Source: Chlamydiota bacterium (lineage in GTDB: Bacteria > Chlamydiota > Chlamydiia > Chlamydiales > SM23-39). From it: 56,011 nucleotides of DNA. A model generated the notes under the pieces. The model saw only the letters and a program-made list of their open reading frames with translations, was not told the DNA's origin and searched no databases. This document shows positions 17,149 through 20,346 of the stretch, in pieces. A program made the translations under genes and the position numbers. Numbering within the stretch: the stretch's first letter is position 1; every line of letters starts with the position of its first letter. The DNA lies in assembly GCA_027451585.1 (NCBI GenBank), contig DAIDIZ010000002.1, positions 1 through 56,011 of the forward strand, in the 5' to 3' direction.

Positions 17149-18081
17149 TCATTTCATGCGAGACATAGTAGGCGTCGCAAAGTGAAACGCAGGATTATCA
17201 GGATCTGCCCGTTTTGTGTAGTAATAGGTTTCTCGATATTCCCCTTCTTTCAACCGATTATGGGTAAAAAACATAGCTCGCCTTGGGGCATCACTTCGGT
17301 TCGGCTCCGAATAATGAGGAATGTACGAATTAAAAAAGACCACATCCCCCGGCGCTGCTTCAATCGGCAGCCAAGAAATTTTATCTGCATAAAGCGGTTG
17401 AATCGTTCCGTGATTTTTTCCTCCCACGATGTAGGGTAAAACGGCCGTCCCGTTCTCTAGTAGTTGAGGATCGATCCCATCCATTCCGCGAAAGGTCTCG
17501 CGCCAGTTTTGAGCTATATGGAGACACCCATTTTCCAATGTGGCCCGATCAATGCACACCATCACAGAGACATGTTCTCGGGGGCCAAAAAACTCAAAGG
17601 CTGGAAAATCTTGATGGGGAGGGAAAGCGCCGCCCCCCGGCCATTTGAAATTGATTTTATCTTTGAAAAGAGTATAAGGCTCATTCAATAAGGTCGTCAA
17701 ATAGGTGGTGAGAGTCCCAAAGACAAATTGATGTAAATCGGGATAGCAAGAGAGGAGGTCTTCGGCTCGACAAATTTGAGAAGGATTTCCCGCTTCAGGG
17801 ACGACGATTAAAGACCCACGCATTTTTTGAGCGAGGATTTGTAAAGGGAGCCCCGAACTTTTTGACAAAGCAGCCAACGTCAGGGAGGATTGATGAATCT
17901 GATCAGCCCAGTCCTTCAAAAGCAAAACTTGATCGGGGGAATAAAACTGTTTAATCCAAAGGTATCCATTCTTTTGGAAAAACGATCTCCTTTCTTCCCA
18001 CCCGTTTTGCGTCGAAGCAAAAGGCTCTTGAGAGAACCCCACCATCCAAATACATGCGATAATTACACACCAAATACGCAT
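17149..18081 (-). CDS. Fe(II)/2-oxoglutarate dioxygenase, phytanoyl-CoA dioxygenase (PhyH) family, with N-terminal signal-like segment
   Basis: The HQD facial-triad segment (PPHQDFPAF), a distal His (IPHYSEPN) and Arg (RRAMF) are present. The preferred start MRIWCVIIACIWMVGFSQEP at 18081 lies 1 nt after the upstream stop. Confidence 0.8.
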   Translation of the reverse strand: MRIWCVIIACIWMVGFSQEPFASTQNGWEERRSFFQKNGYLWIKQFYSPDQVLLLKDWADQIHQSSLTLAALSKSSGLPLQILAQKMRGSLIVVPEAGNPSQICRAEDLLSCYPDLHQFVFGTLTTYLTTLLNEPYTLFKDKINFKWPGGGAFPPHQDFPAFEFFGPREHVSVMVCIDRATLENGCLHIAQNWRETFRGMDGIDPQLLENGTAVLPYIVGGKNHGTIQPLYADKISWLPIEAAPGDVVFFNSYIPHYSEPNRSDAPRRAMFFTHNRLKEGEYRETYYYTKRADPDNPAFHFATPTMSRMK

Positions 18082-18082
18082 C

Positions 18083-18568
18083 TTAGAAATCTCCTTGATT
18101 GTGCCTTTCAATAATGGTTCGAATGACCTGCGTCGTCGAAATGCCTGGGGTGTAAGGAACAGTGCGAAAAATGCCAAGTTTTAAAGCAACCCCGTACTGA
18201 TCTTCCAAGAGCTCTTTATTGAAATCATCCCCATGAACCACATAACTGATTTGCAGATCACGAACCATTTGCTCTGTAAGACGTAAAGGAGGAGCGACAA
18301 TAACCTCATCCACATACTTACAAGCTTCAATGACCTTCGCTCGATCTTTTAGAGCAATGACGGGGCGCCTTTTGTACTCCTCTACTACATCATCCGCTAA
18401 AACGCCAACAATGAGGTAATCACCAAAGGCCTTCGCTTTTTTAAAAAACTCAACATGACCCGCATGAAATAAATCGCCGACGATGTCGACGTACACTTTG
18501 ACCGGAGCCCCATCAGAATAAAGCCCTCTACATAAAAGACATATGACTAAAGACATGAACTGTAACAT
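18083..18568 (-). CDS. Cytidylyltransferase, TagD / CCT family, with N-terminal hydrophobic extension
   Basis: GDLFHAGH is the HxGH motif. FGDYLIVGV, YVDEVI and TPGISTTQVIRTI match the RTEGISTT block of TagD and eukaryotic CCT. A ~20 aa hydrophobic leader, MLQFMSLVICLLCRGL, precedes the domain. Confidence 0.8.
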   Translation of the reverse strand: MLQFMSLVICLLCRGLYSDGAPVKVYVDIVGDLFHAGHVEFFKKAKAFGDYLIVGVLADDVVEEYKRRPVIALKDRAKVIEACKYVDEVIVAPPLRLTEQMVRDLQISYVVHGDDFNKELLEDQYGVALKLGIFRTVPYTPGISTTQVIRTIIERHNQGDF

Positions 18569-18896
18569 AAGCTATTTTTCCCCCTTAAAATATTTTCGAG
18601 CCAATATCCTATAAAAAAATTTAATTTTCAGTCAACGTTCCTACCAAAAAAACAAAACAAATAAATACATTGAAAAAAATAATAAAAAAACATTAAAATA
18701 TGTTATAAACCGCAATCACAACTACAAGCTCCGTTATTAAAAGAGTCTGACGGGAGACCTCCAGAAGTTCCTTCGCTAAATAAAGGCCCACAACCCGAAA
18801 AATGGGTATACGACGGCAGCGACTTCGGATGGACCCCAGGACGTCTGCCACGTCGGTTTTATTCAGCAGGGCCCAAGAGAAAAACAAGAGATTAAC

Positions 18897-19169
18897 ATGA
18901 GCGTTTCACAAACTTTTCCCTATCCTCATCTGGAACACTTCACGGAGCTTCTCTCGCCCGAGGGAGTTGAGGACCCGATAACAGCTGAGGCCCTACGAGC
19001 TATTCATCAATCAGCTCGACGAGCGCCTGTGCTTGGATCCTCCACAGAACGCAGTTGTCTAGAGCGGGCAGCAGAGGGTCGCAAAGCCGCTACTATATGC
19101 CTAGCGGTAGGTATTGGTTTAACGATTACCGGATGCAGCATATTTTTGGCGATTAATCCTTCACCATGA
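18897..19169 (+). CDS. Small hypothetical protein with a single C-terminal transmembrane segment
   Basis: 90 aa ending in ATICLAVGIGLTITGCSIFLAI. No homology recognised. Confidence 0.4.
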   Translation: MSVSQTFPYPHLEHFTELLSPEGVEDPITAEALRAIHQSARRAPVLGSSTERSCLERAAEGRKAATICLAVGIGLTITGCSIFLAINPSP

Positions 19170-19242
19170 CCCTACATCGAAGTAATCTGAAAATGCAGCA
19201 GCTTTTGCGCAGCCAAACTCAAAATTCATTATGGAATCGATG

Positions 19243-20346
19243 TTAATGGGCGTGCATGCGGCCCCAATAAGGATGAGTAAGATCTTTCTCATAACTTCCC
19301 TTTGAGGGGTCAAAGATTTTAACCGGCGAAAGATTTTCCCCGTAGTACCGTTGAAGATATTTCTCTGGATCGCGAGGAACGAACACTTCCACCCCATCGA
19401 AAACAGCTTTTTTTAAGGGGAAAACTGCATCAAATGAAATGGGCTGAGTAAATCGGCGCTCCCGAATTTTCCAACTCTCTGGAAGGAATACATTATTTTC
19501 CTGAGACAGGAGATACCGAATTTCTCTTTTCTTAGGATCAATCATGAAATGGTACAGATCGATTAAAGATCCGGTCTCTTTTACGTAAACGCGAATTAAG
19601 CTTTTGGGAAATTCTCGACTTGACCAATCGAGGACAGTGTATTTTTCTTGGTCGAGTTTGTGCAAAAGACGAAACACGTTATCAAAATCGGGAAGGAGAA
19701 TCGCCATATCGATATCAAAGTCCCAAGGAATCACGCCTCCGTATCGATAGGCACCAAGACAAGTTCCGCAATCAACCCACCAAACAATGTTCTCTTCATT
19801 CAAAAGAGTTCCGATTTCTCGAAGAGCCTCTTTTTCCTTTTGCAGATATTGGTCATCTCCAGGTCCTCTTTGGTATCCTTGGGAAATCAAGGTCTCTGCT
19901 TGCAGGCGATCTCCTAAATCCAACCCCATTTCTTGATAGGCTTTAATTTGAGAAATAACCCGAGTCGATTGGAGGGCCTCTTGAATGGAAGAGAGCCGAG
20001 AGGAGTAGGAAGTGGCTAAATAGGCGATCGCCTTGAGAAGAGATCCCCCTATCAAACTGGGAGGAAGAAGAACGGCGGAAAATCCCGTTTTGATCCAAAA
20101 ACGATCGGAATAATCAAAGCGCTGGGTAAATATCCACTCCTCTTGCTCACCTCCTCGAGAAGCCTCTCTCCCGGCAAAAAGATATTGAAAAGGGATGAGG
20201 AGGGTATCGGCCCCCTTTTCTAAACCGACCGCATCGGTAGCGGCGACATTTAAAAATGGGTTCATGGTGATGAGATGATAAAACAACACAAAGGGGAATC
20301 CGATCTGGCATATCCCATCACAAATCCAATCCACAAAACGGCCCAC
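19243..20346 (-). CDS. LicD-family phosphotransferase (LicD / fukutin-like nucleotidyltransferase fold)
   Basis: DCGTCLGAYRYGGVIPWDFDIDMAI matches the LicD GTLLGAVRHxGFIPWDDDID core. The C-terminal YLQRYYGENLSP is also LicD-like. The first ~190 aa are unassigned. The track start is GTG. Confidence 0.75.
   Translation of the reverse strand: MGRFVDWICDGICQIGFPFVLFYHLITMNPFLNVAATDAVGLEKGADTLLIPFQYLFAGREASRGGEQEEWIFTQRFDYSDRFWIKTGFSAVLLPPSLIGGSLLKAIAYLATSYSSRLSSIQEALQSTRVISQIKAYQEMGLDLGDRLQAETLISQGYQRGPGDDQYLQKEKEALREIGTLLNEENIVWWVDCGTCLGAYRYGGVIPWDFDIDMAILLPDFDNVFRLLHKLDQEKYTVLDWSSREFPKSLIRVYVKETGSLIDLYHFMIDPKKREIRYLLSQENNVFLPESWKIRERRFTQPISFDAVFPLKKAVFDGVEVFVPRDPEKYLQRYYGENLSPVKIFDPSKGSYEKDLTHPYWGRMHAH

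Follow-up and report, generated by a model that had tools for sequence, protein, structure and literature searches.

The closest described relatives of the gene set analysed here are the Pnt or 'Group 1' phosphonolipid clusters (Rice et al. 2019, PMC6697681; Li & Horsman 2022, PMC8942020, 'Burkholderiales_CDP-OH' family), which join a PhnY*-type 2-oxoglutarate (2OG)/Fe(II) oxygenase to cytidylyl activation of 2-aminoethylphosphonate (AEP) and a head-group transferase. Clusters that contain both a 2OG oxygenase and cytidylyltransferases are predicted sources of 1-hydroxy-AEP lipids (PMC8942020). Of PEP mutases, 23.6% carry a fused PF01467 domain, and AEP-tailoring neighbourhoods include LicD-like transferases (PMC6697681). 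The same dioxygenase family initiates the PhnY*/PhnZ oxidative degradation of AEP (McSorley et al. 2012; review PMC10574752), and its characterised members all hydroxylate the carbon bonded to phosphorus (PMC10574752, PMC8942020). Parts of the set also resemble the eukaryotic Kennedy-pathway enzymes PCYT2/ECT and CCT, the lic locus of Streptococcus and Haemophilus (LicA-LicD) and the CDP-ribitol transferases FKRP and fukutin, in which a LicD-family enzyme moves a cytidylyl-activated head group onto a glycan, and two further PF01467 enzymes, TagD and the CyTase domain of Fom1 from the fosfomycin pathway. Because Fom1 cytidylylates hydroxyethylphosphonate, the PF01467 fold can evidently activate a phosphonate.

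The window (the whole 56,011-nt stretch of chlamydial DNA analysed) carries three intact minus-strand genes that look like a variant of this phosphonyl-tailoring pathway: a PhnY*-family Fe(II)/2OG dioxygenase (17149-18081; 310 aa from an ATG, MRIW...), a single-domain ECT/CCT-type cytidylyltransferase (hereafter CTase; 18083-18568; 161 aa) and a LicD-family phosphotransferase (19243-20346; 367 aa, GTG start). Their family names in the initial annotation were borne out by matches to PF05721 (generic PhyH; E = 6.9e-24, 85.7 bits), PF01467 (E = 8e-19) and PF04991 (E = 8e-19), and with such E-values and hundreds of full-length homologues these cannot be chance ORFs. The names of homologues and the neighbouring genes (recR-bamA-skp-lpxD, a pknD-like kinase, valS and a V-type ATPase) speak for a chlamydial origin of the DNA. 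The set differs from the Pnt clusters in several respects. PEP mutase (PepM), phosphonopyruvate decarboxylase (Ppd) and AEP transaminase (AEPT), as well as PhnZ and PntC, were found neither in the 56-kb window nor in any chlamydial locus; the activating enzyme is of ECT/CCT type (PF01467) instead of the LicC-like PntC (PF12804); the candidate transferase is LicD instead of a CDP-alcohol phosphatidyltransferase; and both soluble enzymes have predicted signal peptides. PepM itself has been reported in only two chlamydial MAGs (PMC9666466).

The stop codon of the CTase gene (TAA) is followed by one base and then by the dioxygenase ATG, the 1-nt spacer read at the outset; a longer, TTG-started dioxygenase ORF reaching 18177 was rejected, as it overlaps the CTase gene and disagrees with homologue N-termini. 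A perfect 13-bp stem-loop (17119-17148, minus strand) lies directly 3' of the dioxygenase stop codon, with a predicted RNA fold of -27.6 kcal/mol (z = -4.9) equalled by 0 of 200 shuffles, and likely marks the end of a two-gene transcript; having no T-run, it was not flagged by a simple terminator scan. On the other side, the AT-rich stretch upstream of the CTase gene (18569-18710, minus strand) contains a sigma-70-like match (TTGACT-18-TAGGAT, 18635-18606), and a GGGGG Shine-Dalgarno-like run precedes the CTase ATG. This stretch is the probable promoter of the pair, a call that is only suggestive because promoter-like matches across the region are no more numerous than expected from shuffled sequence. 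The gap of 674 nt between the LicD and CTase genes (given initially as about 700 bp) includes this promoter-like stretch, and the layout places LicD in a separate transcription unit. LicD lies 23 nt downstream of trpS (tryptophan-tRNA ligase, 20370-21407, minus strand; TIGR00233, 254 bits, cut-off passed), on the same strand as had been noted. The trpS gene, also found upstream of the pair in L005, L007, L010, L085, L086, L087 and L089, is a housekeeping neighbour that anchors the locus and is not in the pathway.

The dioxygenase scores higher against the curated PhnY* model NF052437 (GmPhnY*, Gimesia; 141 bits) than against generic PhyH; it falls short of the 500-bit cut-off of this model, the only curated PhnY* equivalog, as do its PhnZ-linked relatives. 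The intact HxD...H triad noted initially proved invariant among homologues (H156-x-D158...H256), as did R267, the AF2 model (pLDDT 93.5) has a PhyH-type fold, and some homologues carry the JGI name '2-aminoethylphosphonate dioxygenase'. The family profile found 54 non-chlamydial loci, and in about 40 of them the gene is next to PhnZ or within a PEP-mutase/AEP biosynthetic cluster. PhnZ is nearby in 32, with a PhnZ-sized ORF immediately upstream in 18 of them (the one such ORF scanned scored 211.9 bits against TIGR03276); PepM and Ppd, usually with AEP transaminase, occur in another 8, and Ppd with AEP transaminase in 1 further locus. The nearest non-chlamydial protein (L030, 46% identity) belongs to a complete phosphonolipid set of exactly the Pnt kind (Ppd-AEPT-PhyH-...-PepM::PntC-PntC-CDP-alcohol phosphatidyltransferase), and in an NJ tree it is sister to the monophyletic chlamydial dioxygenases.

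Residues common to the chlamydial, PhnZ-linked and PepM-linked groups are R105, E107, K140, D141, K142, N144, K146, H156, Q157, D158, N184, W237, H256, S258, N261, R267, R268, Y286, Y287, K290 and H300. The enzyme is thus predicted to be a PhnY*-family phosphonate alpha-hydroxylase, acting on the alpha-carbon of AEP. Beside the conserved motifs, the chlamydial clade has D108 for Tyr, W147 for Asn/His and H224 for Asn, so that its substrate could differ from free AEP. These substitutions, together with the signal peptide and a cytidylyltransferase partner in place of PhnZ, set it apart from the PhnY* of AEP degradation, and its role is likely biosynthetic, not catabolic. Since the dioxygenase belongs to the PhnY* family, the most likely activated head group is a CMP conjugate of AEP or 1-hydroxy-AEP instead of the CDP-alcohol first proposed; nor is the joining of a dioxygenase to a cytidylyltransferase as unusual as had been supposed, being already known from phosphonolipid clusters (PMC8942020).

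The CTase has the HxGH and ISTT motifs originally read (HAGH at residues 35-38, GISTT at 142-146) and shares the HxGH fold, (K/R)YVDEV and the C-terminal GISTT with ECT and CCT. Its best solved relatives are human ECT (3elb, 8e-38), CCT (3hl4, 1e-20) and the Fom1 CyTase domain (5x3d, 1.7e-15), to which it is less similar than to ECT and CCT and from which it also differs in not being fused to PEP mutase. Of the 'TagD/CCT-type' label, the CCT half therefore stands, with ECT closest, whereas the TagD equivalog cut-off was missed (59.7 against 165.4 bits). Alignments place a Pro, as in ECT, at the choline-binding Trp of CCT (Trp151); the CTase also lacks the membrane-binding domain of CCT, and it differs from ECT in having one catalytic domain instead of two and in being a bacterial protein with an N-terminal Sec-type leader. 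ECT-type enzymes of AEP-rich eukaryotes are thought to make CMP-AEP. Among its relatives are LicD-CTase fusions (P0400, P0418, P0467 and P0497, and P0502 in the reverse order; 47-51% identity) and a CTase-methyltransferase-PhnY*-like (PhyH) fusion (P0508, 43% identity), which support a functional link between CTase, LicD and PhnY*.

In 11 of 26 chlamydial species loci the CTase and dioxygenase genes lie side by side, with no fewer than six kinds of flanking context, and a spacer of 0-3 nt separates them in five loci (the window, L085, L086, L087 and L089); in addition, 35 of the 119 top dioxygenase homologues lie on a contig equal in size to that of a CTase homologue. Gene order thus identifies a conserved, translationally coupled pair, and coupling this tight speaks for a common substrate lineage of both enzymes. 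The hydrophobic N-terminal leaders pointed out initially (about 18022-18081 for dioxygenase residues 1-~20 and about 18509-18568 for the CTase, both minus strand) are likewise conserved, a strongly hydrophobic N-terminus being present in 110/120 dioxygenase and 111/120 CTase homologues from chlamydiae (about 92%) and in 0/45 non-chlamydial PhnY* relatives. The uncharged stretch, 15 aa at the median, is preceded by net positive and followed by net negative charge; the CTase leader of the window is atypical in lacking the N-terminal positive charge that is usual. From these N-terminal sequence statistics the leaders are predicted to be Sec-type signal peptides specific to the chlamydial clade and, because both soluble enzymes have them, the reactions would take place in the periplasm or beyond. 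We know of no precedent for a periplasmic pathway that depends on CTP and 2OG; such chemistry is conceivable in an intracellular bacterium importing host nucleotides and 2-oxoglutarate across that compartment.

LicD opens with a conserved ~170-aa N-terminal region, in which residues 2-27 form a TM-length helix, and continues into a catalytic domain whose DxDxD (D209/D211/D213) is invariant. Its AF2 model (pLDDT 93.6) has FKRP as the sole PDB fold match under E = 1e-5 (4e-9), and the two share the DxD catalytic motif; the membrane-associated N-terminal region is LicD's own, and LicA kinase and LicC of the lic locus are lacking. The 570 homologues include a top 120 of ~365 aa, and those of them that are named derive from chlamydial-type metagenome bins. 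LicD is only partly linked to the CTase. LicD is directly upstream of the pair, as in the window, in L085 (with a LicD-CTase gap of only 165 nt), L086 and L089 (the last two identical in gene order), and lies at a distance of 4.5 kb in L087; in L005, L007 and L010, the closest GTDB relatives, the locus reads trpS-CTase-PhyH and has no LicD, and across all 80 GTDB loci LicD was not found within 10 kb. The three-gene set whose co-occurrence had been proposed as a check is conserved as a pair, joined by LicD only in some lineages. Elsewhere LicD sits between PagL and an amino-acid-type permease or adjoins glycosyltransferases, surroundings that constitute an envelope and import context.

We tentatively favour, at somewhat short of even odds, an exported phosphonate-tailoring kit, which builds on the family assignments, gene coupling, fusion relatives and conserved leaders; from these we infer which substrates are used, in which order the two reactions run, what the acceptor is, in which compartment the pathway operates and where AEP comes from. 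The locus would be a phosphonyl-tailoring module whose C-P bond-forming genes were lost or never present. The PhnY*-type dioxygenase would hydroxylate C-1 of AEP, free or conjugated, and so yield (R)-1-hydroxy-AEP, the CTase would join CTP to AEP or hydroxy-AEP to form a CMP-phosphonate, as ECT makes CDP-ethanolamine, and LicD would move the phosphonyl head group to an envelope glycan or lipid, most plausibly lipooligosaccharide. As no PEP mutase pathway lies nearby, our best guess is that AEP is salvaged from the host; protists and invertebrates are rich in AEP. A PEP mutase or a PhnZ may nevertheless be encoded in other parts of the genome. If true, the chlamydial envelope would bear a phosphonate (C-P) head group, undescribed for this phylum.

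An ordinary phospho-alcohol pathway, which we consider unlikely, would have the CTase activate phosphoethanolamine, phosphocholine or glycerol-phosphate for transfer by LicD to LOS or another glycan, with the dioxygenase modifying the head group or an unrelated substrate. The CTase, a single HxGH-class domain, is about as similar to ECT/CCT as to anything, C-P-forming genes are lacking nearby, LicD-CTase fusions occur without any dioxygenase, and an amino-acid/choline-type permease adjoins LicD in L090 and L094. In L093, moreover, the neighbours of a 74%-identical CTase are a GT9 glycosyltransferase and a CDP-ribitol-synthase-like (IspD/SDR) fusion, and the dioxygenase is missing, an arrangement that agrees with a phospho-alcohol role. 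However, the dioxygenase keeps all family-wide residues of a family tied to phosphonates in most of its non-chlamydial loci, its characterised members all act on a P-bonded carbon (PMC10574752, PMC8942020), which phospho-alcohols do not have, and the tight coupling argues for a substrate lineage shared with the CTase. L093 also offers a GT9 (heptosyltransferase-family) neighbour to the idea of a housekeeping nucleotidyltransferase role for the CTase (as CoaD, NadD, RibF, or RfaE domain II for ADP-heptose) in a coincidental gene order, and RfaE domain II is its top-scoring NCBIfam model (75.9 bits). This idea is largely refuted and very improbable indeed: every NCBIfam equivalog cut-off is missed by far (RfaE-II 181.5 bits; CoaD 23.2 against 103.3; TagD as above), ECT/CCT domains score 73-77 bits whereas the 'putative cytidylyltransferase' structure 5x9q, presumably an HldC, reaches just 36, L091 has a nadD-like PF01467 gene that is not homologous, and a predicted cleavable leader, patchy distribution and LicD/PhyH fusions do not fit. 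By these comparisons the CTase is of ECT/CCT type and not housekeeping, and the refutation through a housekeeping CTase envisaged in the initial annotation did not materialise.

The chlamydia-specific leaders could also belong to secreted effectors. Once across the outer membrane, perhaps through type II secretion, the enzymes would work in the inclusion lumen or in the cytosol of the host and target its AEP or Kennedy-type ethanolamine lipid metabolism instead of modifying the bacterial surface. The cytosol offers CTP, 2OG, Fe(II) and AEP, the non-bacterial relatives of the CTase are eukaryotic ECTs, and LicD is inconsistently linked to the pair; but the evidence for export extends no further than the periplasm, the closest CTase relatives are single-domain proteins and LicD fusions (45-60% identity) and not eukaryotic ECT domains (32-41%), and a membrane-anchored LicD adjoins the pair in several lineages, which makes effectors less likely still than a phospho-alcohol pathway. 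We give less credence again to scavenging or detoxification, whereby an exported PhnY*-like enzyme would start P or N acquisition from host AEP, an unlinked PhnZ/PbfA-type enzyme would cleave the product and the CTase would be loosely related. The 32 PhnZ-linked homologues are catabolic and a periplasmic location would be suitable, yet no PhnZ turned up in the 56-kb window or within 10 kb at about 30 chlamydial loci, the invariant partner is an activating rather than a degrading enzyme, and the sister of the chlamydial clade comes from a biosynthetic (PepM) cluster.

An antisense ORF of 90 aa with a hydrophobic C-terminus (18897-19169, plus strand), between the LicD and CTase genes, had no Pfam or NCBIfam match and no tblastn match in any locus fetched, and is probably outside the system. 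The two 'LtaS-like' proteins that the initial annotation had joined to the pathway are generic PF00884 membrane proteins, one closest to YejM/PbgA, and nothing ties them to it.

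Four consecutive open reading frames on the minus strand of the window encode tryptophan-tRNA ligase (trpS, 20370-21407), a LicD-family protein of 367 aa that starts with GTG 23 nt after trpS (19243-20346), a cytidylyltransferase of 161 aa (18083-18568) and a PhyH-family dioxygenase of 310 aa (17149-18081). Profile searches matched the last three to PF04991, PF01467 and PF05721 respectively, with E-values of about 1e-19 to 1e-24 each, confirming the genes, their order and their positions as the initial annotation had read them. The LicD and cytidylyltransferase genes are separated by 674 nt, and a single base lies between the TAA stop of the cytidylyltransferase and the ATG of the dioxygenase, whose AAGGAG ribosome-binding site is found within the end of the cytidylyltransferase gene. 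A longer, 342-aa version of the dioxygenase frame with a TTG start (to 18177) was rejected because it overlaps the cytidylyltransferase gene by 95 nt and because homologues begin at the MR... methionine. Beyond the dioxygenase stop codon, on its 3' side, is a perfect 13-bp hairpin (-27.6 kcal/mol, z = -4.9). Since scans with sigma-70 and terminator consensus sequences gave matches no more frequent than in shuffled sequence, the operon boundaries rest on spacing, the AT-rich gap and this hairpin: upstream of the cytidylyltransferase-dioxygenase pair lies a separate AT-rich region with a weak promoter-like match, and the LicD gene is probably carried on the trpS transcript. Otherwise the window carries ordinary core genes of chlamydiae (truA, recR, bamA, skp, lpxD, a pknD-like kinase, valS, V-type ATPase, transaldolase), and those homologues that bear names are labelled Chlamydiales, Parachlamydiales, Rhabdochlamydiaceae or Simkaniaceae.

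The dioxygenase matches the generic PhyH family with 85.7 bits (E=6.9e-24), and its HxD...H iron triad (H156-x-D158, H256) and 2OG-binding R267 are invariant in 60 homologues. Its AF2 model (pLDDT 93.5) has a PhyH/EctD-type fold, with proline hydroxylase, EctD, EvdO2 and PHYHD1 as the top PDB matches in the fold search. The best curated match is the Gimesia methylphosphonate hydroxylase PhnY* (NF052437, GmPhnY*), against which it scores 141 bits, compared with 132 bits for a member linked to PhnZ and an equivalog cut-off of 500 bits. Because NF052437 describes a methylphosphonate-specific subgroup, and relatives found in 2-aminoethylphosphonate (AEP) contexts likewise fall below its cut-off, the shortfall excludes a GmPhnY* equivalog, not membership of the family. 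Several homologues are annotated as '2-aminoethylphosphonate dioxygenase' by JGI, and the protein carries the PhnY* signature (KDKxNxK...GGAFxPHQD, RRA, YYxxK), whose residues reach 85% conservation or more in the chlamydial (24 sequences), PhnZ-linked (30) and PEP mutase (PepM)-linked (9) groups alike. Residues common to the three groups are R105, E107, K140, D141, K142, N144, K146, H156, Q157, D158, N184, W237, H256, S258, N261, R267, R268, Y286, Y287, K290 and H300; the chlamydial clade has substitutions of its own at D108, W147 and H224. Neither sequence nor fold comparison with the PDB turned up a solved structure of the PhnY* type, and the substrate pocket is therefore not assignable by comparison.

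We built a profile from 22 homologues of the dioxygenase and scanned one genome per GTDB species, obtaining 80 loci with 10-kb flanks. Twenty-six of these are from Chlamydiota MAGs (46-65% identity) and 54 are non-chlamydial, mostly from Proteobacteria and Acidobacteria (30-50% identity). A PhnZ homologue lies near the dioxygenase relative in 32 of the 54, and in 18 of those 32 a PhnZ-sized ORF (about 185 aa) is directly upstream; one such ORF, scanned against TIGR03276, scored 211.9 bits. These loci, often with a PhnX-like HAD hydrolase, EamA exporter, ABC transporters and LysR/GntR regulators, represent the canonical PhnY*/PhnZ oxidative AEP pathway (PMC10574752). Eight further non-chlamydial loci encode PepM and phosphonopyruvate decarboxylase (Ppd), usually together with AEP transaminase, and one more encodes Ppd and AEP transaminase. 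The closest non-chlamydial relative (locus L030, 46% identity) sits in a complete phosphonolipid-type cluster comprising Ppd, AEP transaminase, the dioxygenase, a methyltransferase, a PepM-PntC fusion, a second PntC and a CDP-alcohol phosphatidyltransferase. In a neighbour-joining tree without bootstrap, which is indicative only, the chlamydial dioxygenases form a single clade with L030 as sister. The L030 cluster (7526-17056) comes from a record labelled as a Candidatus Woesearchaeota MAG; this archaeal assignment could stem from misbinning or could indicate the donor lineage. With high confidence, we predict the window dioxygenase to be a phosphonate alpha-hydroxylase; free AEP, N-methylated AEP and an AEP conjugate are candidate substrates.

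The cytidylyltransferase is alignable over its full length to ECT and CCT, and its motifs H35-A-G-H38, K84-YVDEV and P141-GISTT show little or no variation across 23 homologues. The motifs named in the initial annotation (HAGH and GISTT here, and the iron triad of the dioxygenase) are thus present and conserved, as is the metal/nucleotide motif D209-x-D211-x-D213 of LicD. The nearest solved structure is human ethanolamine-phosphate cytidylyltransferase (8e-38 when both ECT domains are counted, and some 73 bits for a single domain), and a CCT structure scores 77 bits; next come the phosphonate-specific cytidylyltransferase domain of Fom1 (1.7e-15) and TagD. At the position of the choline-binding Trp of CCT (choline-pocket residue Trp151 in rat CCT-alpha), the protein has Pro94, within an invariant 'APPLRLT'; a Pro is also found there in ECT. 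As a single 161-aa domain, it lacks the two-tandem-domain architecture of ECT; it is predicted to act like one ECT domain and is not an ECT orthologue. That it might instead be a housekeeping enzyme, which had been raised as a way in which the annotation could fail, is very improbable: it misses the curated equivalog cut-offs for TagD (TIGR01518, 59.7 vs 165.4 bits), RfaE domain II (TIGR02199, 75.9 vs 181.5 bits) and CoaD (TIGR01510, 23.2 vs 103.3 bits) by a wide margin and is nearest to ECT/CCT, and we rejected this role.

An exhaustive search of 1.84 billion representatives returned three groups of cytidylyltransferase relatives: a few chlamydial-type proteins, two-domain eukaryotic ECTs at 32-41% identity (one of them named, from the dinoflagellate Durusdinium), and relatives with one domain that are 45-60% identical. 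One chlamydial-type protein (P0361, 293 aa, on a 29-kb contig) has a tandem-duplicated domain, recreating the two-domain ECT architecture independently. A Pfam scan of multi-domain proteins with a single cytidylyltransferase domain found LicD fused to it in four or five metagenomic proteins (P0400, P0418, P0467 and P0502, with P0497 as a partial match), and one relative fused to a TagF-like domain. Both domain orders occur among the LicD fusions, and P0400 and P0467 have clear N-terminal signal peptides; outside Chlamydiota, there appears to be an exported 'activate-and-transfer' enzyme. Another metagenomic protein (P0508, 574 aa, on a contig of 59 kb) fuses an ECT-type cytidylyltransferase, a SAM methyltransferase and a PhyH domain bearing the PhnY* signature LFKDKVNF...PGG.F.PHQD, which suggests a one-protein route to an N-methylated, hydroxylated and cytidylylated aminophosphonate head group. 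The LicD and PhnY*-like fusions are independent evidence that LicD transferases and PhnY*-like hydroxylases are the working partners of such cytidylyltransferases.

LicD is a less constant neighbour than the two members of the pair are to each other. Of the 26 chlamydial species loci, 11 have the cytidylyltransferase beside the dioxygenase (two or three others start at the dioxygenase, with the upstream side outside the sequence), in at least six flanking contexts that include co-directional and divergent arrangements, and the co-directional spacer is 0-3 nt. Among the top 119 homologues of each enzyme, 35 dioxygenases are on contigs equal in size to those of cytidylyltransferases, a rough proxy for a shared contig. 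The closest GTDB relatives (L005, L007 and L010) have the order trpS-cytidylyltransferase-dioxygenase, with no LicD within 10 kb, and LicD was found in none of the 80 GTDB dioxygenase loci with their 10-kb flanks. The three genes are contiguous in three other metagenomic contigs, L085, which has the same overall order as the window, and L086 and L089, which share one gene order; in L087 LicD is 4.5 kb away from the pair, and in the MAG RIFCSPHIGHO2_12_FULL_49_9 LicD and the dioxygenase are on separate contigs.

The LicD protein itself scores 69 bits against PF04991 (gathering cut-off 22.6) and resembles FKRP (Foldseek E=4e-9; phmmer 7.7e-8), its DxD motif is invariant among homologues, and it falls below the Mf1 equivalog cut-off (50.5 vs 225 bits). 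It begins with a 26-residue uncharged helix and shows no clear bias in charge there. The chlamydial LicD family is large (570 matches, about 365 aa). In three chlamydial-type contigs (L090, 594-10573; L094, 3850-7372; L095, 3731-5806) the lipid A 3-O-deacylase gene pagL precedes LicD, which is followed by an APC-family amino-acid-type permease in L090 and L094; this recurrent arrangement is a hint of LicD activity on lipid A/LOS and of import of the head-group precursor. In L091 LicD adjoins two GT2 glycosyltransferases, and all of these neighbourhoods are envelope contexts.

The most distinctive feature of the gene set is the N-terminal leaders. A strongly hydrophobic 11-residue stretch falls within the first 35 residues of 110 of 120 dioxygenase homologues and 111 of 120 cytidylyltransferase homologues, and the leaders described in the initial annotation are therefore real; the stretch is present in none of 45 non-chlamydial PhnY*-family proteins, which start about 30 residues later. 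Sequence statistics give a median uncharged stretch of 15 residues, with net charges of +1.1/+1.6 before it and -1.2/-0.7 after it, in about 98% of the homologues. The residues preceding the core are typically MK or MR (net positive), and the leader of the window cytidylyltransferase (MLQFMSLVICLLC) has no basic residue. These leaders fit a cleavable Sec signal peptide, not a membrane anchor, from which we infer export of both enzymes. Some non-chlamydial single-domain cytidylyltransferases and LicD-cytidylyltransferase fusions also carry signal-peptide or lipobox-like leaders. Chlamydiae import host nucleotides and dicarboxylates through the Npt and SodTi transporters; these compounds must therefore cross the periplasm, which makes export of such enzymes less paradoxical than in free-living bacteria.

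The initial annotation had regarded a dioxygenase alongside a cytidylyltransferase and a transferase as unusual, a view that is contradicted by pepM clusters, where this combination is already known and whose largest family, with a 2OG oxygenase and cytidylyltransferases, has 1-hydroxy-AEP lipids as its predicted product (PMC8942020). Each component here is of a known family; 23.6% of PEP mutases are fused to PF01467 domains, and AEP-tailoring neighbourhoods contain LicD-like transferases (PMC6697681). These published findings agree with the fusion evidence above. In common with the Pnt pathway (Rice et al. 2019), the locus pairs a nucleotidyltransferase with a surface-directed transferase (LicD-like or a glycosyltransferase), the two lying 674 nt apart here, but in contrast to it the window and the chlamydial loci have no neighbourhood of PEP mutase (EDKxxxxxNS), Ppd and AEP transaminase. 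With tblastn (PepM, Ppd and AEP transaminase queries from L030), none of PepM, Ppd, AEP transaminase, PntC, CDP-alcohol phosphatidyltransferase or PhnZ was found in the 56-kb window or about 30 chlamydial loci, and the chlamydial dioxygenases accordingly show no genomic link there to PhnZ or to PepM, Ppd and AEP transaminase. A published survey reports PepM in just two sponge-associated chlamydial MAGs (PMC9666466), and the literature we searched holds no description of a dioxygenase-cytidylyltransferase-LicD gene set in Chlamydiae. What is new here is the phylum in which the genes occur, a locus lacking C-P-forming genes, a nucleotidyltransferase predicted to be of the ECT type rather than the LicC type, and the conserved putative export signals.

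The best explanation, which we advance tentatively and with slightly less than even confidence, is a salvage form of a phosphonyl-tailoring pathway whose soluble steps would take place outside the cytoplasm. AEP, probably host-derived, would be hydroxylated at C-1 by the dioxygenase, and the cytidylyltransferase would use CTP to form a CMP-phosphonate, in either order; LicD would then move the head group onto an envelope glycan or lipid. The phospho-alcohol decoration proposed in the initial annotation, with the dioxygenase acting elsewhere, draws on the ECT/CCT kinship of the cytidylyltransferase and has to be set against the PhnY* signature of the adjoining gene; we consider it unlikely. The leaders could also belong to secreted effectors that target the host's AEP or ethanolamine lipid metabolism, a reading to be weighed with the LicD gene contiguous in L085, L086 and L089, and one that we find decidedly doubtful. 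Scavenging of AEP with an unlinked cleavage enzyme would draw on PhnY* family membership, and with PhnZ missing from the chlamydial loci covered we give it only a small chance.

To return to the salvage pathway, its full form would be that in some environmental chlamydiae exported PhnY*-like and ECT-like enzymes build CMP-(1-hydroxy-)AEP from host AEP, CTP and 2-oxoglutarate crossing the periplasm, and that a membrane-anchored LicD attaches the product to the envelope; stated so specifically, it is rather unlikely. A few bacterial groups and many protists have phosphonate decorations, and the hosts of obligate intracellular chlamydiae are often rich in AEP; to our knowledge, PEP mutase has featured in every discussion of such decorations. 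In the present case, obligate intracellular bacteria appear to have the tailoring half of a phosphonate pathway alone, with export signals. If the extracytoplasmic pathway exists, it would be the first case in Chlamydiota of a surface decorated with phosphonate, and a PEP-mutase-independent 'salvage' branch of phosphonate biology, in which host phosphonates can be re-used at the bacterial cell surface. The envelope chemistry of environmental chlamydiae, of which little is known, would gain a new component that might affect host recognition as well as phosphatase and phospholipase resistance. How CTP and 2OG can serve a pathway in the periplasm would then need explaining, no earlier use of a cytidylyl-activated donor there being known to us. 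A PhnY*-like gene paired with a PF01467 cytidylyltransferase could serve surveys as a pepM-independent marker of phosphonate use.

Elsewhere in the window, two plus-strand genes (3547-5490 and 6911-8683) encode PF00884 (alkaline-phosphatase superfamily) membrane proteins, with a thioredoxin-reductase/thioredoxin fusion on the minus strand between them (5427-6830). The initial annotation had taken the two as LtaS-like partners of the three genes, a link that we rejected as unsupported: the second is closest to the LPS regulator YejM/PbgA (E=1.3e-10), and the first has weak matches to sulfatases and EptA. The trio recurs beside recR-bamA-skp-lpxD in L087, and its position therefore reflects conserved synteny and is no evidence of a teichoic-acid-like system. 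Between lpxD and the dioxygenase, a plus-strand gene (15678-17000) encodes a 440-aa AAA+ ATPase with an FtsH/proteasome-ATPase-like core and a long N-terminal region with hydrophobic segments, without a protease domain; relatives have other genes at this position (in L085, two ~850-aa ORFs of unknown function). The gap between LicD and the cytidylyltransferase contains an antisense 90-aa ORF (18897-19169, plus strand) with a hydrophobic C-terminal segment and no family match or counterpart in related loci, the corresponding gap measuring some 110-165 nt in L085, L086 and L089. This ORF may be spurious, or it may encode a small membrane protein peculiar to the lineage.

Variant neighbourhoods were also seen. 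A PF01467 gene beside rsfS in L091 was rejected as a homologue of the cytidylyltransferase and is presumably nadD. In the chlamydial-type contig L093 (8001-11364), a 74% identical cytidylyltransferase with a leader, and with no dioxygenase, precedes genes for a GT9 (heptosyltransferase-family) enzyme, a small P-loop protein of kinase-like type and a fusion of IspD with a short-chain dehydrogenase that resembles CDP-ribitol synthase; the whole looks like a different LOS/glycan decoration cassette around the same enzyme. In L003 (9028-10951 and 19571-20611), a 2.3-Mb MAG contig, a dioxygenase with no adjoining cytidylyltransferase is divergent to an APH/choline-kinase-family kinase and ExoD, and a TauD-family dioxygenase lies 9 kb away, an arrangement that may be another variant of head-group metabolism.
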